Of a stretch of DNA of 36,782 bases, positions 771 through 26,330 are shown in pieces. The stretch lies in IMG/VR virus record IMGVR_UViG_3300006969_000007; one strand, 5' to 3'. Below the pieces are notes generated by a model. The model saw nothing but the letters and a program-made list of their open reading frames with translations. It did no database searches and was not told where the DNA came from. Both the position numbers and the translations under genes were made by a program. Each line of letters starts with the position of its first letter. Position 1 is the first letter of the stretch. The stretch is from a virus.

Positions 771-828
771 AGTATCTCCTTTTAAAAAGTTTTAATGTTA
801 ATCCCATAGAATCATAGCTAAAATTTAT

Positions 829-857
829 TTGCAATCTTTTCTATATTAGTGTATAGT
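829..857 (+). promoter_or_regulatory. Sigma70-like promoter TTGCAA-17 nt-TATAGT driving the RHH cassette
   Basis: -35 at 829-834, 17-nt spacer, -10 at 852-857, about 34 nt upstream of the ATG at 891. Confidence 0.55.
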
Positions 858-890
858 TAGTTATATAGATATAAACATTAAAGGGAACCC

Positions 891-1064
891 ATGGAAGAAC
901 TGAATAGAAAAAAGCCGACAAGAAAGCAGGTTATATTCGATGTTTCAGAAGAGGATCATCGATTAATCAAGCGAATGGCGATGAATCAAAAAATGACGAT
1001 GCGGGAATGGATCATCAATGCAATGGCTGATGCTATCAAAAAGATGCAGGAGCCGATTATATGA
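891..1064 (+). CDS. Ribbon-helix-helix (CopG/Arc/MetJ-like) DNA-binding protein, 57 aa
   Basis: The ORF is below the track cutoff. The sequence MEELNRKKPTRKQVIFDVSEEDHRLIKRMAMNQKMTMREWIINAMADAIKKMQEPII shows a beta-strand followed by two helices, as in RHH proteins. It is the first gene of an ATGA-coupled operon. Confidence 0.7.
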   Translation: MEELNRKKPTRKQVIFDVSEEDHRLIKRMAMNQKMTMREWIINAMADAIKKMQEPII

Positions 1065-1189
1065 TACTGATTAAATTATTAATGATCATGGCGCTTTGTA
1101 CTGCATCACTAGTTACGTTGTATGTATTTATGTTAGTGAATAAAGAAATAGATAATGCGTGGGAAAAATTTCGAAAGGGAAAATCATGA
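1061..1189 (+). CDS. Small membrane peptide, 42 aa, N-terminal TM helix and basic tail
   Basis: MILIKLLMIMALCTASLVTLYVFMLVNKEIDNAWEKFRKGKS. Its ATG overlaps the RHH stop (ATGA). Confidence 0.55.
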   Translation: MILIKLLMIMALCTASLVTLYVFMLVNKEIDNAWEKFRKGKS

Positions 1190-1317
1190 ATGAGAATGAA
1201 TTGAAAGAATTGATGCAATACATAAAGAGCATTAATAATAACATCATGTTTATGACGGTAATTAGTATGTCTTATTATTGGTATTGGTTTGTAAATACCC
1301 TCATATTCCAGGCGTAA
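1186..1317 (+). CDS. Small membrane peptide, 43 aa, C-terminal aromatic TM helix
   Basis: MNENELKELMQYIKSINNNIMFMTVISMSYYWYWFVNTLIFQA. Its ATG overlaps the previous stop (ATGA). Its 3' end overlaps the convergent 316-aa gene by 17 nt. Confidence 0.5.
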   Translation: MNENELKELMQYIKSINNNIMFMTVISMSYYWYWFVNTLIFQA

Positions 1318-2251
1318 TTTTCTGGTCCTGTAATAAATTCGATACGAAGCCTGAATGTTCTGATGCGCAATTTTCATATGCTAAACGATCAGCTTCTGCG
1401 CGATTAGCTTGAGCTCTTTCTATCTCAACCATGCTCAATTCTTCTGGTCGAGCTTCTTGGCTTTTACCTTCTTTAAGCACTTCAATCTTATTGACCAAGC
1501 CACCGTATACCCGTTCTAATCGAGCAATACGCATGCTACCAGCCAATCGTGTCTCGACTTCTTCCCTATCGTGTTTATCTAAATCACGGCTTATGCATCC
1601 AACTTTTTGTTCAATACTGTCTTGTTTCTTCTTCTGTTGTTTTACATAGTTATTGCCATCAACAAGCAGCTGCTTCATTTGTTCTCTATATCTGCCTATT
1701 GAATCAGCAATTTCACGTTGCCTAACCGCGACGATATTCAAATTGTTATGTATTTCATTCATTTTAGATGTGGTTACGTGTGTATGATCAATAAGGTCAC
1801 ATAGTATAAGTTTATGACCGTTTTGTTCTTCGTGCAATCCTTCTAAATGTAATGATTCTAATCCATTAATACGCATATCAATTCTATCATGCCTATTTTG
1901 TAGTTCCTCATGATGAATATCAAGCGCTATCTTCTGTTGATCAATAATCGCCTGTAAAGAAACCAGTTGTTCGGCAAGCCTCTGTCCTTCTTGCCTTTGT
2001 TGCTTTAATAATTCTGATTGCTTTTCTTGTTCATGGAGCAATCGAGCTGGATCACAAAAACCGCTCAGGTCAAAATTTGAAGAGCCACGACTATGCCATG
2101 GAACTGGAAATTGTGGGCTCAGGCTTGGACTTCTTCGCCGGATTATGGGCGAATGCTTTCGGGTGTTACTCTTATTATTACGTACGGCACATACATTACT
2201 ATTCATGCTTAAAATGGTTACATAAAGACACAATAGTGAGAACATATTCAT
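1301..2251 (-). CDS. Signal-peptide-bearing coiled-coil protein; last gene of the internal-virion/ejection-like block
   Basis: 316-aa ORF with a hydrophobic N-terminus (MNMFSLLCLYVTILSMNSNVCA), followed by long heptad-like Q/E/L-rich sequence. Confidence 0.65.
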   Translation of the reverse strand: MNMFSLLCLYVTILSMNSNVCAVRNNKSNTRKHSPIIRRRSPSLSPQFPVPWHSRGSSNFDLSGFCDPARLLHEQEKQSELLKQQRQEGQRLAEQLVSLQAIIDQQKIALDIHHEELQNRHDRIDMRINGLESLHLEGLHEEQNGHKLILCDLIDHTHVTTSKMNEIHNNLNIVAVRQREIADSIGRYREQMKQLLVDGNNYVKQQKKKQDSIEQKVGCISRDLDKHDREEVETRLAGSMRIARLERVYGGLVNKIEVLKEGKSQEARPEELSMVEIERAQANRAEADRLAYENCASEHSGFVSNLLQDQKITPGI

Positions 2252-11612: not shown

Positions 11613-12293
11613 TTAAGCTAATGTTGCGCGTAAGTTAATTACCCACAAGTCATTAGTAATTCTTGGAACTTCAGCAAATTTGTAACCAACCGACGCGTTC
11701 AACGCTAATGGTCCATCATAAATCGGTGGTCGATAAATAAAGCTTGCTGAGTAACCGTCTTGCTCAATGCATGCGTATGCTTCCATACCAACACAGAAAA
11801 TGTTGAATACATTGGCACCATTTGAAGATGCATTAGCAGTAAAGCTACCAATAGATGAAATCAAGAATCGAAGGTTACCAATAGCACCCCATTCTGAACG
11901 CAATGCATTCATTGGCGCAGGGTATTGGTTCTTTTGAATGAATCCAGCAACGGCATCAAGATTACCAGTCAATTGTGTTGAACATAATGCAAAGTATGCA
12001 TCACGAACTGGTGCTGTACCGAATTTGTCTTCACCTTCGATGTTGTCCATAATCGTGTACGCATTATTGTTTAATAAAGTACGAACGACAGCATCCACAT
12101 CAGAACGGGTAATTTCAGTCGGATTATCACCATTAACACCACCAACACTATTAATAAAACCAGCAGTTGCTGCTAACATATCACGAGTTAATTGGTCTTC
12201 GGTTTGACGAAGAGATACACCAAGACGAGCAGCACATTCATTAAGAACAGGATCTTGGTTCTGCAGTGTGCATTTAACTGTTACTTTTTTTGA
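11613..12293 (-). CDS. Major capsid protein, exon 2 (226 aa; HK97-fold / N4 gp56-like pattern)
   Basis: The frame is open from 12293. There is no start codon for the first 38 conserved codons (SKKVTVKCTLQNQDPVLNECAARLGVSLRQTEDQLTRD). The rest is the 188-aa track ORF. Confidence 0.75.
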   Translation of the reverse strand, partial: SKKVTVKCTLQNQDPVLNECAARLGVSLRQTEDQLTRDMLAATAGFINSVGGVNGDNPTEITRSDVDAVVRTLLNNNAYTIMDNIEGEDKFGTAPVRDAYFALCSTQLTGNLDAVAGFIQKNQYPAPMNALRSEWGAIGNLRFLISSIGSFTANASSNGANVFNIFCVGMEAYACIEQDGYSASFIYRPPIYDGPLALNASVGYKFAEVPRITNDLWVINLRATLA

Positions 12294-13125
12294 CCAAATA
12301 TTTTCTATTTGGCGGTTGGTCTTGTTATTCCCAACTCCCCTAGTCTCCTAAGGGATCGGACTGTCGCTTCACCTCTCGGTGTCCACTCGCCTCAGTCTCT
12401 CAGCGTGATAATTTAATTTATTTATGGTACGCTATATCCATACATTAAAATGAAGGAAAACTATGCATGACGAATTCTCATACTTATCACAAAATAATTC
12501 AGAGCAACAACTAATAAGAGATTTGAAAATAACAACTATGAGCTATCTTGCTGGAATTGTAGACGGAGAAGGATGCATTGGATTAGAACATCTTTCACCG
12601 ACTAAAAATAGAAAGAAAGATTATTACGTATGCCGACTTACCGTAGTTAACACCAGTGAAGAACTAATGAAGTTATTAGTGTCTAGCCTCAAAGGGCAAT
12701 ATGATACAAGAAAAAAGATAGAAGGCAGAAAGACTTGTTATAGATGGCATGTTTTTGGTAAAGACCTAGAACAAGCTATCTTGGCCTTGTTGCCTTATTT
12801 GCGTATCAAAAAGAAACAAGCGAAATTAGTTCTCGAATATAGAAATACAGTAGCAAGCAATGGTTGGCTCATTAGTGATGATGTACTTGCGCATAGAAAA
12901 ACCATTTGGATTGAATGTAAGAAATTAAATACCATAGGTGGTTAAATTATCTTCGCCCTTGTCGCCCTCGTCTTTACGTTAGGGCTTCCAAGTCAATCAG
13001 AGCGGATTTAAAGCAGGCCATTTACTGCTAAAACCAAGAAATTTCAAAGAACAATCGTCGTTAACCTGCTCGTTCAACTGTACATAGGTCTATAATAAGT
13101 CGAACTCATACGGCACCTACTTTTT
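12294..13125 (-). mobile_element. Group I-like self-splicing intron (832 nt) carrying an antisense LAGLIDADG gene
   Basis: P1 pairs exon/intron UACGGU|A with UGCCGUA (plus-strand 13125-13131 with 13109-13115), with U.G at the cleavage site. The intron ends in G at the tip of a 7-bp hairpin CCAAAUA/UAUUUGG (12294-12312). Further stems are 12315-12335, 12338-12354 and GUUCGAC/GUUGAAC. Joining the exons gives an in-frame 314-aa capsid protein. Confidence 0.65.
12463..12945 (+). CDS. LAGLIDADG homing endonuclease, single-motif (I-CreI-size, 160 aa), antisense to the capsid gene
   Basis: Contains the motif SYLAGIVDGEGCIG. SD AAGGAA lies 6 nt upstream of the ATG. It sits inside the capsid-gene interruption. 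Confidence 0.8.
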   Translation: MHDEFSYLSQNNSEQQLIRDLKITTMSYLAGIVDGEGCIGLEHLSPTKNRKKDYYVCRLTVVNTSEELMKLLVSSLKGQYDTRKKIEGRKTCYRWHVFGKDLEQAILALLPYLRIKKKQAKLVLEYRNTVASNGWLISDDVLAHRKTIWIECKKLNTIGG

Positions 13126-13389
13126 ACCGTAAAAACTAATAACTGCATCAATATCTACCGCAGTAAGATTTTGGGCAGGAGGAGTAATACCAGAATTCCC
13201 TAAAGGAACCATCGCTGTGTTAAGCGGATTGTATCGACGCATACGAAGAGTTGTACCACCATTACGCGGCATATTCTTCTTCATTGCGGGGATCTTATGG
13301 ATCATATTAGGAACTGGTACTGAAAGTAGTTTGTACGAGAAACTTTGCTGCACTGGTGCAGGCAGTGTACTCGTAGTTGTGATAGCCAT
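13126..13389 (-). CDS. Major capsid protein, exon 1 (88 aa, ends ...AVISFYG)
   Basis: AAGGAG lies upstream of the ATG at 13389. The N-terminal pattern is QQSFSYKLL...GGTTLRMRRY...LTAVDIDAVISFYG. The unspliced frame stops 2 codons later (TAG at 13117-13119). Confidence 0.75.
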
Positions 13390-13397
13390 AATAGCTC

Positions 13398-19034: not shown

Positions 19035-20444
19035 TTAATAACCTTCATTATTAAACATCCTTGGCAAATTGCTCTCGCTACCATATAATGCTTCACGGTA
19101 TCGTCGATCAAGTTCATCAGGAGAGGTACCATCTTTTGTTTTTGGTAGTGATATACAGAGATAGCGCATCGAATCCGCAAAATGGGAGGACCAATCGTGC
19201 AGTGGGCAGCTTTTATATACCTTGCGTTTCACATCATACTCTTGGCGGTAATTCTCAAGAGCCTTTAATAATGGCTCGCATGCTTTTACATCAATCCATA
19301 TTTTCCCTAAAGAGGATCGAACCGATTCAATCCCATCTTCGATAGAAACATCTGGTGCTATCGTAAAGCTAATTCCTAACTGTTTTGCTTTCTCGATCCG
19401 TGTCATACCAGAACCAAACTCACGAACGCGTATATCATGGGGCGCAATATGTTTTCCGTAGGTGTACGGCTTCTGCTGTAAGATCTTTGCATAATGCTCA
19501 AGACCTTCTTTATTCTTTTCATACACATCGATTAATCGTATCGCCTGACCAATCACCTGAAAGAAGATAATACAGGTATTATCGCGTACTCCCAAGTCCC
19601 ATGCAGTATGTACTTTGAACCCAGGCTCCCAAGGAACCATGCCAATTTGATTGTTTACCCGCATCCTATCAAGATATTTTGCGTAGTAAGAACCCTCGAC
19701 ACCCATGGTAAAACTGGTATAATACTCTTGTTGAATTAAATCTTCGCTCATTACTCCTTCTCTGCGTTCTTTTTCTATTTCAGAAAGTGGTATGTGATTA
19801 GTGTCTTCAATGGTGAGTTTATACACAAACCATTCAGGAGAATGAAGGGCTATCTGATACAGCTGCCACATATGATTTTTACCCCGAGGAGTAGAGATAA
19901 AAAGTGCCCAGCCTTGGTTCGCCGTCAGAATCGGTCGAATGTATTGATATGCCCTCTCATCCTGCAGTGCATACTCTGAGAATACTACTCCTTGTGGATT
20001 AGTACCCATCAGAGAATCATAGTTATCTGAACCAACTATTTGGAAGAGAGACCCGTTTTTAAAGCGGATCTTCATCTCCTGTCCATTCTTGGAATCTATT
20101 AATTCCTCAGGAATGTAATCTAAAATCCGTTCACCCGTGCTTGTTATTGAATCCCAAAGGATTTTCTTACCCGATGCGTAGGTAGGAAATATGTAAAATA
20201 TTACACACACTTTTCTTAAACAAGCACGAATGCACAGTTGAAAGGCAGTCATGTCCTTACCAGCTCGCCGAGGCAAGATAGCAAGAACCTTTTTGTAACC
20301 CTTATTCTCTATCGCATCAAGAATAGGAAGTTGATAGTCTCGTGGAACAAATTTATTCAATCGTATCTTCGTTTCTACGTTCAGGACAGTTTGCGTACCC
20401 GCAGCTGCAGTGTTCATATTTGCATTTAGCTTCATTGCATGCAT
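19035..20444 (-). CDS. terL: Terminase large subunit
   Basis: Walker A-like LPRRAGKD, an ATPase domain followed by an RNaseH-like nuclease domain (HTAWDLG, HDWSSHFADSMRY). AAGGAA lies 6 nt before the ATG. Confidence 0.9.
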   Translation of the reverse strand: MHAMKLNANMNTAAAGTQTVLNVETKIRLNKFVPRDYQLPILDAIENKGYKKVLAILPRRAGKDMTAFQLCIRACLRKVCVIFYIFPTYASGKKILWDSITSTGERILDYIPEELIDSKNGQEMKIRFKNGSLFQIVGSDNYDSLMGTNPQGVVFSEYALQDERAYQYIRPILTANQGWALFISTPRGKNHMWQLYQIALHSPEWFVYKLTIEDTNHIPLSEIEKERREGVMSEDLIQQEYYTSFTMGVEGSYYAKYLDRMRVNNQIGMVPWEPGFKVHTAWDLGVRDNTCIIFFQVIGQAIRLIDVYEKNKEGLEHYAKILQQKPYTYGKHIAPHDIRVREFGSGMTRIEKAKQLGISFTIAPDVSIEDGIESVRSSLGKIWIDVKACEPLLKALENYRQEYDVKRKVYKSCPLHDWSSHFADSMRYLCISLPKTKDGTSPDELDRRYREALYGSESNLPRMFNNEGY

Positions 20445-20928
20445 AGTGTTTCCTTAACCAGTATTTCAATATATAGTTAATAACCAAAAATATCAGACAA
20501 TGGAGAATGAAATTAAAAACCAAACACATACACCACATTATTCCCGATACTGTTACTGGTATTCTCCCTACAAATGAACACATCCAGTATATCCATCCGA
20601 CGTACGAAAATTGCAGCACTCCATGCCGTTTACGATAACACCACGAGGATGCTTCTGTACGGTTACAGGTAGTTTTATCACACTCATAGTGCTCTCTTAA
20701 CCAGTATTTCAATATAAAGTTAACAACCAAAAAAGTAGCAACGTGGAAAATGAACGACATCATTTGTGAGCCAAATGCCATTGTATATGAATAATGCCTC
20801 TCCAATCTATAGCACATTATTGTTGCTGGTACTAACACTAAAAATGAATACAACCAATACATCCATCCAACAAAGGTAAACTGATCTATACAATGCCGTT
20901 TACGATAACACCATCTATTATTGTTCAT
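20353..20928 (-). CDS. Polytopic membrane protein built from two tandem ~81-aa repeats with a Cys-rich tail
   Basis: WCYRKRH..QF..VGW.YW ... NFILKYWLR.HY.C occurs twice. Hydrophobic helices are present. The 3' end overlaps terL by 92 nt. Confidence 0.65.
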   Translation of the reverse strand: MNNNRWCYRKRHCIDQFTFVGWMYWLYSFLVLVPATIMCYRLERHYSYTMAFGSQMMSFIFHVATFLVVNFILKYWLREHYECDKTTCNRTEASSWCYRKRHGVLQFSYVGWIYWMCSFVGRIPVTVSGIMWCMCLVFNFILHCLIFLVINYILKYWLRKHYACNEAKCKYEHCSCGYANCPERRNEDTIE

Positions 20929-20938
20929 CGAGACTATC
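20453..20938. repeat. Tandem 243-bp in-frame duplication inside the membrane-protein gene
   Basis: CTTAACCAGTATTTCAATATA occurs at 20453 and 20696. ATGCCGTTTACGATAACACCA occurs in both copies. Confidence 0.8.
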
Positions 20939-20950
20939 TCCTTTTATGAG

Positions 20951-21988
20951 TTATTCTTTTTGTTCGTCAAGACCTTGTATTGCCCTAATTGATCTCTTCA
21001 ATTCATTATCACCAGATCGTCTATAATTAATACTTTTGTCACCAAAACGAGCAAGTGTTTTTGCATGTTTTTCACTCTGCGAAGCCATTTCTTTTTTTAT
21101 AAGAGCAAGTTCTTTCTGTTTTTGATTAAGCTTTTGATTTTGTTCACTTTTTAATATTTCTTCATGGAGTTTTGAAGCATTTTCTTGTATTTCTAAGTTA
21201 GCAGCATTGACCTTTAAATTCTGTTCAGCATACTCTAGGGCTTTTTGTCGATCTTCAGTGAGTTGACGCTGTTCTTCTTCTCGTGCCGCTGGCCCTCCTT
21301 TTAAAACATCAACAACTTTCTGAAAACCAATAGCAGCACCACCGCTACTTGCAGTGAAAACAACTCCATTCACCGCAATATTAGCAAGCTCTTTTGCTCT
21401 ATCCGAATTACTCATTTCTGCATCATTCATAACGTGCGCAACGCTCTTTGATGAACCAATAGTATTTGCCGCGCCGGATATTGCTATCTTGCCTAATCGT
21501 TTCGCGTGGTCAATCGTAGCATTTAATGCACTGTACGTCTCCTGATGAGGATTTGCGACCTCCGCAGAAACAATCGGTTCTACAGCTGGCGCATTAAAAC
21601 CTCTGGTTGTTTTATCATCAGTACCTTCATTTGATGAACCAATAGAAGCTGCCGCTCCTGACAGTACTACTTTAGTTGCAGTTGGCGTTGAAGAAACAGC
21701 GGCATTTAATGCATTGTACGCTTTCGTAGCTGCAGCAGAAGGATTTGCAGCTATTGCAGCAACAATCGGTGCAGCATATGGTGCCACAAGTACGGTAGCA
21801 GATCCAGCTACAGCTCCAATCGCAAAACTAGTAGCATCCTTTTTAAACTTCTGTGGTGTTCCGCTTACTCTACACATGCTTCTCATAATACCCCATCCAC
21901 CACTATATTTAGAATCGCATGTTTCCTCATTAGCAGAGAAGATCAATGATGATACGCAGAGTAATGACAAAGATAATAATTTATTCAC
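20951..21988 (-). CDS. Secreted protein with a signal peptide, an Ala/Ser/Gly-rich core and a C-terminal coiled coil
   Basis: N-terminus is MNKLLSLSLLCVSSLIFSANEE. The C-terminal third is E/Q/K heptads. Confidence 0.65.
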   Translation of the reverse strand: MNKLLSLSLLCVSSLIFSANEETCDSKYSGGWGIMRSMCRVSGTPQKFKKDATSFAIGAVAGSATVLVAPYAAPIVAAIAANPSAAATKAYNALNAAVSSTPTATKVVLSGAAASIGSSNEGTDDKTTRGFNAPAVEPIVSAEVANPHQETYSALNATIDHAKRLGKIAISGAANTIGSSKSVAHVMNDAEMSNSDRAKELANIAVNGVVFTASSGGAAIGFQKVVDVLKGGPAAREEEQRQLTEDRQKALEYAEQNLKVNAANLEIQENASKLHEEILKSEQNQKLNQKQKELALIKKEMASQSEKHAKTLARFGDKSINYRRSGDNELKRSIRAIQGLDEQKE

Positions 21989-22043
21989 AGTTAATCCTAA
22001 TTTACTTTAATACTATTGTGATTGTTCAGAATAAGATTCATCT

Positions 22044-23294
22044 TTAAAAGAGATTTCTTCGTTTCGCTGCTTTCGGCGCTTCCTGTGGAGCTACTTGAGG
22101 AGCTGCTGCTTGAGAAGCTAATTTCTTTTGTTGAGATAATTCAAATATCTGACGCAGTGATGGCGCTGCGACTGGAGCAGATTGCTGAACCACGGGCGCT
22201 GCTGCCTTTGGAGCCGCTTGAACAGCTTTAGGAGCAGGAGCCGGGGCTTGTTTTACGGGCGCTGCTTTTTGAGCCGCTGGCGCCGCTGCTGGTTTTTTAG
22301 TTACCGGTGCTGGTGCCGCTTTTGCTGCTGCCTTTGGCGCTGCAGCAGGTGCTGATTCTCGTTTTACAGGCGTTGCTCCCTTATAAGCACCGGATTGAAC
22401 TGGCGCTATATCATCATATACAGCGCTATAAATTTTACAGCTATCATTCCCACCTGTGCGCTCAAAACGAGCCGGTTGTGGTGGTGTATAATTACTATCC
22501 ATATTCACTTTATATGCTCCATCTGCACCAATTGAAAGTCTAGGATCAAGAATACTGGATTCCCCCCAACCCAAAGGATGCCTTGATAGTGCTGTGCCCC
22601 CCAAAGCACATTCCGCCTTAGAAGTCGGTGCCGGATCACTACCAGTATATAAATCACGAACCATTTGATCATTTATCTCTTGCTCTCTTCTATACTGAGC
22701 GCCTCTACAATCTCTACAAGGTTCACGAGTAGCGCCTATTGAATCCGCAGTGGCATTAATAGCCGCTTTCGTAACCTGTCCACCAACTTCTCCAAGAGCT
22801 CCGGCAACAATTGCTTCTAACGCCCACATCATATTATGAGTCAAAACACCATCAACGAATAACTGATGAACCGATGCAATGTTCACCATACGTGTTTTCA
22901 TTGCCAAGCCACTCTTTCTTTTCACATCAAGGATAGTAATTGGCAATAGATCACCGCCAAATAATGCATTCTGGGCAGTAAGATCTTCTGCCTTTATCCA
23001 TTCTTCTTTTAATGGATCAAAAAACAATTGATCTGGTGCTGCTTTGATTCTTCGTTTTCCCAAATTGATTTGTATTGTTGAGTTTCTCCTGCCACCACAC
23101 TGGTTCATCAGGACTCGCTCGTGTGCAAGACCGTTCATCTCTCTGTTCGCAGAAAGAACGCGCTCACCTACCATAACTTCGTGTAACATTTTTACGCCAG
23201 AACCGGATTGTACTAATGCATCGCCTGGTATAACCGCAGCGATAGGATTGGAAAGTGCGACAAGAATCGTCGACATCTTTAAATGATATTTCAT
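22044..23294 (-). CDS. Hint (Hedgehog/intein-like) domain protein with a Pro/Ala/Lys-rich C-terminal region
   Basis: ATG at 23294 lies 4 nt after GGAGC. It has a hydrophobic leader. The Hint-like blocks are GDALVQSGSGVKMLHEVMVGERVLS ... VNIASVHQLFVDGVLTHN, ending in the intein-type HN. The low-complexity segment reads APAAAPKAAAKAAPAPV... Confidence 0.65.
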   Translation of the reverse strand: MKYHLKMSTILVALSNPIAAVIPGDALVQSGSGVKMLHEVMVGERVLSANREMNGLAHERVLMNQCGGRRNSTIQINLGKRRIKAAPDQLFFDPLKEEWIKAEDLTAQNALFGGDLLPITILDVKRKSGLAMKTRMVNIASVHQLFVDGVLTHNMMWALEAIVAGALGEVGGQVTKAAINATADSIGATREPCRDCRGAQYRREQEINDQMVRDLYTGSDPAPTSKAECALGGTALSRHPLGWGESSILDPRLSIGADGAYKVNMDSNYTPPQPARFERTGGNDSCKIYSAVYDDIAPVQSGAYKGATPVKRESAPAAAPKAAAKAAPAPVTKKPAAAPAAQKAAPVKQAPAPAPKAVQAAPKAAAPVVQQSAPVAAPSLRQIFELSQQKKLASQAAAPQVAPQEAPKAAKRRNLF

Positions 23295-23348
23295 GTTGCT
23301 CCCTGAAATATACTCGTATATGATTTTAAACACTGCTCTGCTTTACTA

Positions 23349-23588
23349 CTACCGCAAAAATTTAGTCTGTATTTCCTCCATTTCTTGCACGTAATTGTTG
23401 TAAATTTCTTGGCACATAATCTCTTCTTCACCTATAAGCACGGTTGCCCAAAGGCTTATCGACCAACTCATGATATCCCGTATACCCCACGAAGATGAAG
23501 ATCGACAAACGAAAGAATGAGTATCAGTTGCTGAAAGAGATCCAGCAAGTAACATAATTATCGAACATCGTATCATCATACGTTTCAT
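23349..23588 (-). CDS. Small secreted/membrane-anchored protein
   Basis: ATG at 23588 lies after AGGAC. The signal-like leader is MKRMMIRCSIIMLLAGSLSA. Confidence 0.5.
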   Translation of the reverse strand: MKRMMIRCSIIMLLAGSLSATDTHSFVCRSSSSWGIRDIMSWSISLWATVLIGEEEIMCQEIYNNYVQEMEEIQTKFLR

Positions 23589-23748
23589 GTACGTCCTAAA
23601 ATGTAATGAGTTATCGCACATCACTGTAGCGGTAATTTTTAAAAAATAAAGAGCGTTTTTGCCAAAAAAATGATTTTAGGAACAAAATAAAAAAAACTGC
23701 ATTCAGCGTGTAACGTGAAGGGAAAAAACATTCCTAAAAGTTGCGTGA

Positions 23749-25701: not shown

Positions 25702-25935
25702 TTAAATATCGCAATAGTTTTTCTCTAATTTATCTAAGCCTTCTGCTATCTTGAGAAGGCTTGTGCATGATAGTTTACCTCCATGAAATAGCTTGTAGAT
25801 CGTGTAATACGATACACCACAAGCATCTATAATCATGATGTGTGTCATCTTATATTTCTTTACGAGTTTTTGTAATCGTTCAGAAAGATCCGGAGCAGAG
25901 TTCTGGATTTCGATTTGTTTAAGCATATCTAACAT
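25702..25935 (-). CDS. XRE/Cro-type helix-turn-helix regulator, 77 aa
   Basis: ATG at 25935 lies after AGGAAGGAAAGG; the track start at 25962 falls at the predicted TSS. The HTH reads MTHIMIIDACGVSYYTIYKLFHGG. Confidence 0.7.
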   Translation of the reverse strand: MLDMLKQIEIQNSAPDLSERLQKLVKKYKMTHIMIIDACGVSYYTIYKLFHGGKLSCTSLLKIAEGLDKLEKNYCDI

Positions 25936-25955
25936 ATACCTTTCCTTCCTATTAA

Positions 25956-25984
25956 TTGACAAAATTACAATTTTATTGTATAGT
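25956..25984 (+). promoter_or_regulatory. Sigma70-like promoter TTGACA-17 nt-TATAGT (rightward)
   Basis: -35 at 25956-25961 and -10 at 25979-25984. Confidence 0.55.
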
Positions 25985-26003
25985 TTTTTATAATAGATGA
26001 CAA
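25975..26003 (-). promoter_or_regulatory. Sigma70-like promoter TTGTCA-17 nt-TACAAT (leftward); its -10 overlaps the rightward -10
   Basis: On the minus strand the -35 is at 26003-25998 and the -10 at 25980-25975. The predicted TSS is about 33 nt upstream of the HTH ATG. Confidence 0.5.
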
Positions 26004-26088
26004 TGCTTGAGTTTAATCTTCAAATATCATGCTCATTTTGTACAAACTGGTTCAACAAATTTATTTTTTATACTGATTTCTGTAAATC

Positions 26089-26097
26089 TGCTATAAT
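26089..26097 (+). promoter_or_regulatory. Extended -10 element TGcTATAAT proximal to the RHH gene
   Basis: Read directly; it lies about 39 nt upstream of the ATG at 26136. Confidence 0.45.
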
Positions 26098-26135
26098 ATA
26101 ATATAATAAAACACAATGTAAATAAGGAAAAATCA

Positions 26136-26330
26136 ATGAGTACAAAAAATGAACTAGCGAGAATCACTATTGACCTTCCGCCAGAGCTACAAAAAAAATT
26201 AAAAACTTTCTCAGTGATCAATGGAATAAGCATGAAAGAATTAGTGATCACCGCAATTGAGAAGCAACTGAAAGCAATGGAAGCGAAAACAACTAATATC
26301 TTGCATCGAGAAAATTATCATGGAAAATAA
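26136..26330 (+). CDS. Ribbon-helix-helix DNA-binding protein; first gene of the rightward operon
   Basis: ARITIDLPPELQKKLKTFSVINGISMKELVITAIEKQL fits the RHH pattern. SD AAGGAAAAA lies upstream. Confidence 0.7.
   Translation: MSTKNELARITIDLPPELQKKLKTFSVINGISMKELVITAIEKQLKAMEAKTTNILHRENYHGK

Follow-up and report, generated by a model that had tools for sequence, protein, structure and literature searches.

In phage P22, the interval from gene 16 to the tailspike gene 9 houses sieA, orf59a and mnt; SieA, an inner-membrane protein of 162-164 aa with three transmembrane (TM) segments, prevents DNA from entering the cell and is matched to the ejection proteins (PMC10883804). The immI region of P22 contains small ribbon-helix-helix (RHH) repressors, which autoregulate at a promoter-overlapping operator. 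Llp of phage T5 is expressed early, from a gene adjacent to pb5 (PMC9586334). It is a receptor-blocking outer-membrane lipoprotein, and no regulator gene is attached to llp. Imm and Sp of T4 are early exclusion proteins of a lytic phage. The T7 holin gp17.5 is encoded beside the tail-fibre gene and far from the amidase gene, and the P1 holin genes lydA and lydB are unlinked from the endolysin; these holin genes are late, co-oriented with the late operon, and code for 60-130 aa.

Here we analyse a cassette in a viral DNA of 36,782 nucleotides (IMG/VR record IMGVR_UViG_3300006969_000007, as a whole referred to as the window), which follows the same podovirus module order of ejection proteins, accessory region and fibre or spike genes. 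The positional analogy to P22, drawn previously in a sequence-only reading of the window, holds, with the cassette at the junction of ejection and fibre or tailspike genes as in the P22 layout (PMC10883804). Unlike in P22, one reverse-oriented operon makes up the whole cassette; its membrane proteins, each with one TM segment, measure 42-43 aa and include no SieA homologue; an Ant-like ORF is found neither here nor in the related cassettes; and neither an integrase nor prophage copies of the phage were found.

The source is a large and abundant family of uncultivated podoviruses. TerL is 64-92% identical among the best 80 of 260 related IMG/VR stretches, and near and distant similarity searches gave no DNA match to cultured phages. 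As the portal shares only about 25% identity with those of KPP25, Bcep22-like and BA3 podoviruses, annotated relatives give no help.

Results

According to the ORF list, three plus-strand ORFs occupy positions 891-1317 and read against the flanking structural (late) genes, with an ATGA overlap at both junctions (RHH/pep2 and pep2/pep3) and an SD-like AAGGGA or AGGAG before all three starts (Table 1). The cassette is a real, reverse-facing mini-operon of one RHH regulator gene and two genes for membrane peptides of about 42 residues. It is flanked on one side by genes for Gly-zipper/TMP-like internal proteins (335, 480 and 316 aa) and on the other by a fibre-like gene, followed by more fibre or tailspike paralogues; the distance to TerL is about 18 kb. 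The ATGA-coupled arrangement against the late genes and the overlap with the convergent 316-aa gene are located exactly as the sequence-only reading had placed them. An intrinsic terminator was found on neither strand at this convergent junction, so that the transcripts of the cassette and the 316-aa gene probably overlap. No relatives of the 316-aa neighbour were found in IMG/VR. An apparent length polymorphism of this gene (191, 301, 314 or 316 aa) was rejected, as the DNA is identical and the variants differ in their called starts only.

Table 1. Coordinates of the cassette genes and associated sequence elements
Feature	Position	Strand	Description
Direct repeat CATAG-N3-CATAG	805..817	+	upstream of the -35 hexamer; candidate distal RHH site
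Sigma-70-type promoter	829..857	+	-35 TTGCAA 829-834, 17-nt spacer, -10 TATAGT 852-857
Candidate operator CTATA (841-845)/TATAG (852-856)	841..868	+	inverted repeat overlapping the -10 hexamer
SD-like AAGGGA, RHH gene	881..886	+	4 nt upstream of ATG 891
RHH gene	891..1064	+	57 aa; leads the operon; codes for a minimal RHH DNA-binding protein of Arc/CopG size
pep2	1061..1189	+	42 aa; N-terminal TM helix, basic tail NKEIDNAWEKFRKGKS
pep3	1186..1317	+	43 aa; hydrophilic N-terminus MNENELKELMQYIKSINNN, aromatic C-terminal anchor
Tail-to-tail overlap of pep3 and 316-aa gene	1301..1317		17 nt; 316-aa gene at 1301-2251, minus strand

In the lineage L016-18, at a local nucleotide divergence of 25-34%, the small ORFs stay open and their changes are conservative. 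The RHH gene differs from that of L016 by 8 synonymous and 4 non-synonymous codon changes, and from that of L002 by 3 differences, all in synonymous third positions; pep2 is intact in frame in L016-18 and swaps only hydrophobic for hydrophobic residues. A 106-aa antisense ORF (1057..1377, minus strand), which would have refuted the sequence-only reading had it been the real gene, carries two in-frame stops and lacks a start in L016-18. One of the stops arises from G1203A, a change that is silent in pep3, and Pfam and PHROGs gave no family matches for this ORF. Judged by this comparison, the three small ORFs are real genes and the antisense ORF is a shadow ORF. The pep3 gene is uncalled in all seven of the near-identical contigs listed, and no source names any of the peptides.

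In the relatives, too, the cassette slot has the ejection-protein genes on one side and the first fibre gene on the other. Among about 30 related cassettes, an RHH gene almost invariably opens the reverse-oriented cassette and adjoins the fibre gene on the opposite strand, with at least one small TM ORF nearly always following, and HMM searches recovered an RHH homologue in every analysed related locus covering the junction except L033. The -4 overlaps are kept in the window and in L016, L008, L010 and L021. The small TM proteins are N-anchored, C-anchored or of a 2-TM type, and among the cargo and the insertions around it are HNH endonucleases, a MazE/AbrB-like gene (in L010, beside the cassette and together with a toxin fragment), Zn-ribbon-TM proteins and a TM-RHH fusion (L134); L132 has two tandem RHH genes. 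This variety of cargo marks the slot as a hotspot for accessory genes rather than a fixed enzymatic module. The term moron, applied to the cassette earlier, does not fit, as the RHH-headed cassette is fixed across the phage family and the cargo alone varies; the RHH-led architecture and its promoter are conserved family-wide.

The promoter upstream of the RHH gene scores 9/12 against the consensus. It is present as previously described, though at this score "near-consensus" was a generous wording, and the match is not above chance: the AT-rich window contains 7 promoter-like matches where 7.1 are expected, the repeat count is 7 versus 6.98, and comparison with the shuffled intergenic region yielded a P of about 0.5. 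As the hexamers alone are not significant, the case for the promoter is based on their conservation in relatives. In an intergenic alignment of the window, L016, L008, L010 and L021 (53% mean column identity), both hexamers and their spacing are invariant, and the equivalent hexamers in L030 are TTGTAA/TACAGT. Across 21 relatives, the promoter score of the RHH strand equals or exceeds that of the opposite strand in every locus and is higher in most, with means of 9.29 and 8.24, respectively (shuffles 8.53). A sigma-70-like promoter for the fibre gene was not found in the intergenic region. The Erf operon on the plus strand, which is also RHH-headed, has a perfect TTGACA together with the same -10 hexamer TATAGT.

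The CTATA/TATAG repeats around the -10 hexamer are candidates for the RHH operator, by analogy to the autoregulation by RHH proteins of the Arc, CopG and omega types. An additional TATAG (864-868) lies within a conserved TTATATA(G/A) block, and L010 and L021 have, as the equivalent element, the perfect palindrome ACTATAT-N4-ATATAGT, of which the right arm is the -10 hexamer. At the candidate distal site further upstream, the intergenic alignment shows partial conservation of a block CCATA(G/T)AAnCATA(G/A). The type of operator-like repeat changes with the RHH clade: in the other clade, TGTACA repeats replace the TATAG type, with three tandem copies in L011. The operator-like stretch 841-856 is matched by an early promoter at 25956-25984 in 13 of 16 bases, most of which are promoter consensus bases.

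For the RHH protein, the AlphaFold model has two helices, residues 20-32 and 37-53; its mean pLDDT is 79.6 and exceeds 90 across residues 21-50. In Foldseek searches with this model, all of the top 50 PDB matches were RHH proteins, including AtaR, KacA, Arc, NikA, ParG, CopG and TacA, with TM-scores of up to 0.82 (normalised to the target), probabilities of up to 0.97 and E-values of 0.46 and above, weak values that are owed to the tiny size of the domain. The segment RKQVIFDV (residues 11-18) suits an RHH beta-strand and falls, in the family alignment, on the strand of every member; it is unstructured in the monomer model, as expected without a partner chain. Pfam gave no RHH match above cut-off, the best being NikA-like (17.3 versus 27 bits), with further sub-threshold matches to HicB, ParD, TacA1, DUF6290 and FitA-like families; the PHROG match to an Arc-like repressor was also sub-threshold (E=0.0077). 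Profile matches to the PDB were led, marginally, by P22 Arc (1b28, E=0.017) and included an antitoxin, ParG and CopG. The ribbon-helix-helix assignment of the sequence-only reading thus agrees with the modelled helices and the Foldseek matches, and by its predicted fold the protein is a member of the MetJ/Arc/CopG superfamily, outside any named family. Across the family, the protein measures 51-67 aa and keeps this layout; the exceptions are a single longer form and the second copy of L134, which is fused to a TM segment and has 90 aa. In the window it ends only 4 residues after helix B, and this near-absence of a C-terminal extension indicates a regulator rather than an antitoxin. Similarity to the second RHH protein of the genome was not detectable.

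Both of the TM segments proposed in the sequence-only reading were recovered. Residues 2-26 of pep2 are clearly TM (KD19 2.33); the C-terminal segment of pep3 (residues 22-40) scores weakly by Kyte-Doolittle (0.97), whereas its aromatic character makes it strongly favourable by the Wimley-White octanol scale (-13.2 kcal/mol). Neither peptide has a lipobox, a Pfam or PHROG family match, or, in Pfam, PHROGs and PADLOC, sequence similarity to known exclusion proteins; PADLOC returned nothing credible for the cassette, with a single weak match to PDC-M67B (E 0.012). A search of 5.8 billion proteins found no homologue of pep2 outside its own lineage. In contrast, pep3 aligns with 47-61-aa tail-anchored peptides of L008, L010 and L021 and of 15 metagenomic clusters, with MN(E/P)..., E(I/L)K+L..+(I/L)..(I/L)E and a subsequent TM segment as common features. 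The MNE/MNP start of this family supports ATG 1186 over GTG 1159 as the start of pep3. Pep3 and its homologues end within the membrane, without a charged C-terminal tail.

The soluble and hydrophobic parts of the peptides diverge at different rates. In pep2, identity amounts to 50% in the TM segment and 94% in the tail; the N-terminal 24 aa of pep3 are identical to those of L016, compared to 42% identity in the anchor. Overall, soluble segments are 79-100% and anchors 27-72% identical, which points to a cytoplasmic business end with the TM segment as an anchor. The high conservation of positions 1141-1257 may simply reflect recombination, and L020 is a recombinant.

An integrase was not found in the window, and a search for prophages or hosts in 185,579 genomes yielded only two free MAG contigs of about 35 kb; the earlier suggestion of lysogen-specific expression is thereby undercut. 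No endolysin, holin or spanin was recognisable in the window (PHROGs, Pfam, NCBIfam, PDB), in a search that included the pre-terminase cluster (20353-23624) and further genes without annotation, and Rfam and tRNA scans of the window returned nothing, an antisense RNA family included. No muralytic gene was seen in the roughly 30 cassettes, for which the Pfam scan covered part of the cargo. Among relatives, L056, L057, L105 and L086 encode an M15 peptidase without signal sequence and without an adjacent TM gene, L114 an M15 peptidase with an N-terminal TM segment and flanking small TM ORFs, and L094 an M15 peptidase together with two lipoprotein-like ORFs. The gene sets of L114 and L094 indicate that the family can carry lysis genes outside the cassette slot.

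Discussion

We tentatively favour an autoregulated operon, read by the host polymerase, for cell-modifying inner-membrane peptides of the superinfection-exclusion type. Host sigma-70 RNA polymerase would read the cassette as a self-contained unit opposite the late genes, and a minimal Arc/CopG-type RHH dimer would most likely bind CTATA/TATAG over its own -10 hexamer and thereby autoregulate the operon. As the operon is independent of the late operon, it is probably expressed early; pep2 and pep3 would then be anchored in the inner membrane by their N- and C-terminus, respectively, with conserved segments of about 16-24 residues facing the cytoplasm, and alter the inner membrane of the infected cell. 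The role that we prefer for them is to exclude a superinfecting phage at the DNA-entry step, the task of P22 SieA, which is encoded at the matching map position and directed at ejection proteins. Late read-through from the p480/p316 operon, running antisense through the cassette, may provide the shut-off. The predicted arrangement resembles T5 llp and T4 imm, where a small envelope protein encoded beside adsorption or entry genes is made early from its own promoter and protects the infected cell; envelope location and own promoter are predictions for the cassette, and the likeness would be one of function, not of homology. Unlike Llp, the peptides are predicted to reside in the inner membrane, show no sequence similarity to Llp and are headed by a regulator gene. 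Known Sie proteins are larger than pep2 and pep3, and what every member of the family possesses could just as well serve an essential function, for example lysis.

That pep2 and/or pep3 instead act in lysis timing, as an RHH-controlled holin/antiholin or pinholin-like pair unlinked from the endolysin, is rather unlikely in our estimate and is kept in play by the window lacking any recognisable lysis gene. Essentially every cassette has a small TM protein, as would be expected of an essential function; the diverse topologies are typical of holins; pep2, with one TM segment and a charged, basic tail, is like gp17.5 and the LydA/LydB proteins a very small single-TM protein encoded beside fibre genes; oligomerisation could be driven by the heptad-like N-terminus that leads into the TM segment in peptides of the pep3 type; two neighbouring genes for small membrane proteins could form a holin/antiholin pair; and the signal-less M15 peptidases of four relatives would need a holin encoded elsewhere. 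Against this, the cassette opposes the late genes under a sigma-70-type promoter and a repressor-type first gene, unlike the T7 and P1 holin genes, pep3-type peptides lack a charged C-terminal tail, and characterised holins are longer than 42-43 aa. Moreover, the soluble parts are conserved and the TM helices drift, where pore-forming helices usually show the reverse. L114 has a canonical-looking lysis set elsewhere, as L094 has its M15 peptidase with two lipoprotein-like ORFs, and that no muralytic gene was seen in the cassettes lowers the claim somewhat, linkage to an endolysin not being obligatory for holins.

The RHH-antitoxin/membrane-toxin pair of the sequence-only reading, or more generally an abortive system with depolarising toxins like Hok, Fst or TisB, checked by the RHH protein or an antisense RNA, is very unlikely. 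Pep2 does have the size and layout of a type I toxin, with a TM segment followed by a K/R-rich tail; overlapping small genes are a feature shared with such systems; the RHH fold is shared with the antitoxins ParD, CcdA, FitA and TacA/AtaR, with AtaR, KacA and TacA among the top Foldseek matches and HicB, ParD, TacA and FitA-like families among the weak Pfam matches; a MazE/AbrB-like gene and a toxin fragment adjoin the L010 cassette; and convergent late transcription would supply an antisense RNA. Yet throughout the family the RHH protein ends right after helix B, unlike type II antitoxins with their C-terminal toxin-binding domain, and apart from the weak PADLOC match above, searches of toxin and defence families gave nothing for the downstream genes, which makes a classical pair unlikely. 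Rfam revealed no antisense RNA family, nothing points to a life as prophage or plasmid in which addiction would pay, and conservation in the peptides lies in the soluble segment instead of the hydrophobic helix. Similarly improbable is a membrane-tethered switch, in which the RHH protein would control the operon that encodes it, possibly along with the early promoter or the divergent fibre genes, while the peptides sequester it at the membrane in the manner of anti-repressors. The RHH gene, always abutting the fibre gene, is the one invariant component of the cassette, prediction places the conserved peptide segments in the cytoplasm, the TM-RHH fusion of L134 and the tandem RHH genes of L132 provide a Rosetta-stone hint, and the early promoter shares bases with the operator-like stretch. 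However, the fusion is a single case, the shared bases largely belong to the promoter consensus, no sigma-70-like fibre promoter was found in the intergenic region, and the two RHH proteins of the genome are not detectably similar.

A broader reading combines elements of these alternatives: an undescribed, family-wide, repressor-headed antisense operon whose single-pass peptides of 40-90 residues, with conserved cytoplasmic coiled segments and interchangeable anchors, would be an RHH-timed lysis clock, as a holin set without linkage to an endolysin, or tethered partners controlling the RHH protein, an option at which the TM-RHH fusion of L134 hints. We regard it as doubtful.

The analysis defines a syntenic locus in which an RHH regulator leads fast-evolving, tiny membrane proteins in an uncultivated phage family, peptides that are usually missed by annotation. 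The promoter-operator-RHH unit with its clade-specific repeats is compact and directly testable. Should the peptides be holins, they would account for cell exit in a family that lacks recognisable lysis genes; should they be exclusion factors, as we tentatively favour, they would rank with the smallest known and would extend the logic of P22 sieA/immI to phages without signs of lysogeny.

Cassette anatomy and coding capacity

The sequence-only reading had described a reverse-oriented cassette of three small coupled genes behind a near-consensus promoter, and all of its physical features were found in place (Table). The RHH ORF is joined to the pep2 ORF, and this to the pep3 ORF, by ATGA overlaps, and the end of pep3 shares 17 nt, stop included, with the end of the convergent 316-aa gene. 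On both sides of the cassette the genes are all on the minus strand: one flank encodes the 316-aa protein and Gly-zipper/TMP-like internal proteins of 335 and 480 aa, and the other carries a fibre-like gene. As no terminator was found between the convergent pep3 and 316-aa genes, late read-through would run antisense to the cassette.

Positions of features in the window and in related loci (locus handles precede the coordinates).
Feature	Position	Strand	Basis
Promoter TTGCAA-17-TATAGT	829-857	+	sequence
RHH ORF	891-1064	+	ORF, SD-like motif
pep2 ORF	1061-1189	+	ORF, SD-like motif
pep3 ORF	1186-1317	+	ORF, SD-like motif
Split major capsid gene	11619-13392	-	
Match to L056 capsid residues 4-101	13392-13063		
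Match to L056 capsid residues 96-318	12287-11619		
LAGLIDADG-type endonuclease ORF	12463-12945	+	
Orphan cluster	20353-23624	-	
Switch-like early region	25702-26330		
86-aa HTH gene	25702-25962	-	
Promoter TTGACA-17-TATAGT	25956-25984		
Second RHH gene, 64 aa	26136-26330		
TM-RHH fusion, 90 aa	L134:3875-4147	-	
Tandem RHH pair	L132:4060-4367	-	
Zinc-ribbon-TM proteins	L011:9022-9261; L013:9093-9371; L026:6253-6486	-	
M15_4 peptidase	L114:6004-6489; L094:14702-15505; L056:12074-12409; L057:17841-18290; L105:17622-17981; L086:9451-9807		

Coding capacity was assessed in a related lineage, L016-L018, with identities to the window of 93% (RHH), 91% (fibre N-terminus), 94-96% (480-aa protein) and only 56% (316-aa protein). 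RHH codons differ by 8 synonymous and 4 non-synonymous changes. The pep2 frame is open, with 14 replacements, nearly all I/L/V/M/F/A swaps in residues 3-24, and N32D as the sole change in the tail; the pep3 frame is also open, with residues 1-24 identical and replacements confined to the C-terminal anchor. In the same lineage the start of the antisense 106-aa ORF is lost and two stops have appeared in its frame; the change behind one of them, G1203A, is silent in pep3. The small ORFs are thus genes, as had been proposed, their frames being kept while the antisense ORF is broken. The related contig L002 differs from the window by four further cassette substitutions, all third-position and silent, and L020 is a recombinant of the window and L016-L018 lineages, with recombination inside the cassette.

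Divergence between the window and L016 is sharply mosaic (1068-1140 and 1258-1880). It is 25-40%, or too great for alignment, in the codons for the pep2 TM helix and in a stretch that runs from the anchor of pep3 into the part of the 316-aa gene encoding the C-terminal two-thirds. In 1141-1257, 2 of 117 nt differ, and the adjacent 480-aa and fibre genes show 91-96% protein identity.

Conservation and cargo

Related loci were gathered via the 480-aa protein and the fibre N-terminus. With an RHH HMM, a homologue was found in every junction-covering locus but L033, which has an Xis-like HTH in its place; the layout of L133 differs. The RHH gene typically leads the cassette and adjoins the fibre gene on the opposite strand, followed by small TM ORFs, with an extra ORF ahead of it in L013, L019, L023 and L029. 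The cargo comprises one C-anchored peptide (L008) or two (L010, L021, the former with a MazE/AbrB-like gene beside the cassette), a Zn-ribbon-TM protein plus a C-anchored peptide (L011, L013, L026, L028), N-anchored proteins (L029, L137), proteins with at least two TM segments (L023, L027, L031, L138) or single TM peptides of 34-45 aa (L135, L139, L025). In L014, L035 and L141 the cassette is larger and contains an HNH endonuclease insertion, in L132 it has two RHH genes and in L134 a TM-RHH fusion. The three-gene set occurs only in the window and L016 lineages; an RHH gene with one or more small membrane proteins encoded behind it is a family-wide feature. The term moron is therefore inapt, as the element is not sporadic: the slot is conserved and the cargo variable. 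The suggested link to lysogeny does not hold.

In L134 an N-terminal TM helix is fused to a second RHH domain, and in L132 the RHH pair is followed by a 35-aa TM peptide. The zinc-ribbon-TM proteins (77-92 aa) combine a CxxC...(F/Y)C..xC ribbon with a C-terminal TM anchor and would be membrane-tethered zinc fingers; that of L028 (81 aa) adjoins its RHH gene, and the same finger, with a weak YacG-like match in Pfam, is repeated in the HNH endonucleases of L014 and L035.

Membrane peptides and RHH protein

Residues 2-26 of pep2 are unambiguously hydrophobic and precede a basic tail; a homologue search for pep2 returned no relatives outside its own lineage. The aromatic anchor of pep3 (22-40) scores weakly on the Kyte-Doolittle scale and -13 kcal/mol on the octanol scale. 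Its family consists of tail-anchored peptides of 43-61 aa in 16 clusters, forming two paralogous, often tandem subfamilies, with a common layout of an MN(E/P) start, a heptad-like E(I/L)K+L..+(I/L)..(I/L)E segment and the TM helix. Throughout the peptides the soluble part is kept (79-100%) and the anchor drifts (27-72%).

Sequence searches with the RHH protein gave sub-threshold matches, all to RHH families (NikA-like, HicB, ParD, TacA, DUF6290 and the PHROG 'Arc-like repressor'). Compared with solved structures, a profile of 18 family members matched P22 Arc best (E=0.017), followed by an antitoxin, ParG, CopG and MazE7. The AlphaFold model has an unpaired N-terminal segment and helices at 20-32 and 37-53, and its best 50 Foldseek matches are all RHH proteins. 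Ending four residues past helix B, the protein is Arc/CopG-sized and, unlike RHH antitoxins, has no room for a toxin-binding tail.

Promoter and operator-like repeats

On consensus match alone TTGCAA-17-TATAGT is unremarkable. When the intergenic regions between RHH and fibre genes were aligned (mean identity 53%), the blocks without variation were the fibre SD, TTG(C/T)AA, CTATA, TA(T/C)AGT and TTATA(T/A)A. In L010 and L021 a perfect palindrome, ACTATAT-N4-ATATAGT, has the -10 element as its right arm; in a more distant clade TGTACA repeats take its place, as expected if an operator co-evolves with the RHH protein. In all 21 loci compared, the RHH strand's best promoter score equalled or exceeded that of the opposite strand (means 9.29 vs 8.24; shuffles 8.53). 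The window's other clear host-type promoter also drives an RHH-first operon.

That promoter, a strong one, lies in a switch-like early region, divergent from the HTH gene; the second RHH gene, unrelated to the first, heads the Erf operon, so that two operons of the genome are RHH-first.

Phage genome and family

The 36.8-kb window is an essentially complete, circularly permuted genome of an uncultivated podovirus: in ENA, JGI and Logan contigs with the same RHH protein, 99.9-100% identical over 600-2300, its last genes sit directly upstream of its truncated first gene. This near-identity, seen in several unrelated samples (L001, L003-L007), means either that the phage is widespread and unusually clonal or that sequence was carried over between samples; 35 blocks of the collection list the RHH protein in their index. 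PHROGs matches comprise portal, large terminase, capsid, fibre/tailspike-like proteins, two Erf-like proteins and a replication initiator, with no integrase among them. DNA similarity searches found nothing shared with cultured phages, and the portal is ~25% identical to those of KPP25, Bcep22-like and BA3 podoviruses. The family is large, as a terminase search of IMG/VR returned 260 related stretches, the best 80 of which are 64-92% identical and mostly on 30-40 kb contigs.

Relative to the intact 318-aa capsid of L056, the major capsid gene is split by ~775 bp, the opposite strand of which bears a homing endonuclease ORF; none of the Rfam intron models matched at threshold. Capsid genes are interrupted in L057 and L105 too.

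No lysis gene was recognisable in the window by PHROGs and further searches. An endolysin-like M15_4 peptidase, absent from the window, is inserted at differing sites among relatives: the L114 enzyme carries a TM helix at its N-terminus and has small TM ORFs beside it, that of L094 is followed by two lipoprotein-like ORFs, and in L056, L057 and L105 it lies between scaffold and capsid genes. In lambdoid phages the lysis genes lie just upstream of the terminase, the position of an orphan cluster here. Its ORFs encode 91 aa (hydrophobic N-terminus), 429 aa (weak pretoxin-HINT match), 345 aa (signal-peptide-like start) and 191 aa (hydrophobic); searches gave no family or structure matches.

Function

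An exclusion-type accessory role is tentatively suggested by the variable cargo with endonuclease and TA-like insertions, by independent, host-type and probably early transcription, and by conserved, predicted cytoplasmic segments on interchangeable anchors. There is precedent in P22, where sieA/mnt occupy the equivalent map position and SieA targets ejection proteins (PMC10883804), and in T5, whose early gene llp adjoins the receptor-binding protein gene (PMC9586334). That the cassette instead times lysis is rather unlikely: a small TM protein is nearly universal in the cassettes, the window has no recognisable lysis gene, and the M15 peptidase of some relatives lacks both signal sequence and adjacent TM gene, but no muralytic gene was seen in any of about 30 cassettes, part of whose cargo was scanned against Pfam, orientation and promoter type are wrong, pep3-type peptides lack a charged C-tail, and lysis-looking sets are located elsewhere in at least L114 and L094. 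A toxin or abortive module is improbable, the minimal RHH protein and the absence of toxin or defence matches disfavouring a classical TA pair, and we give similarly little weight to a membrane-tethered regulatory switch. The locus is best described as an accessory cassette that encodes small envelope proteins under probable RHH control and lies at the junction of the entry-apparatus genes.
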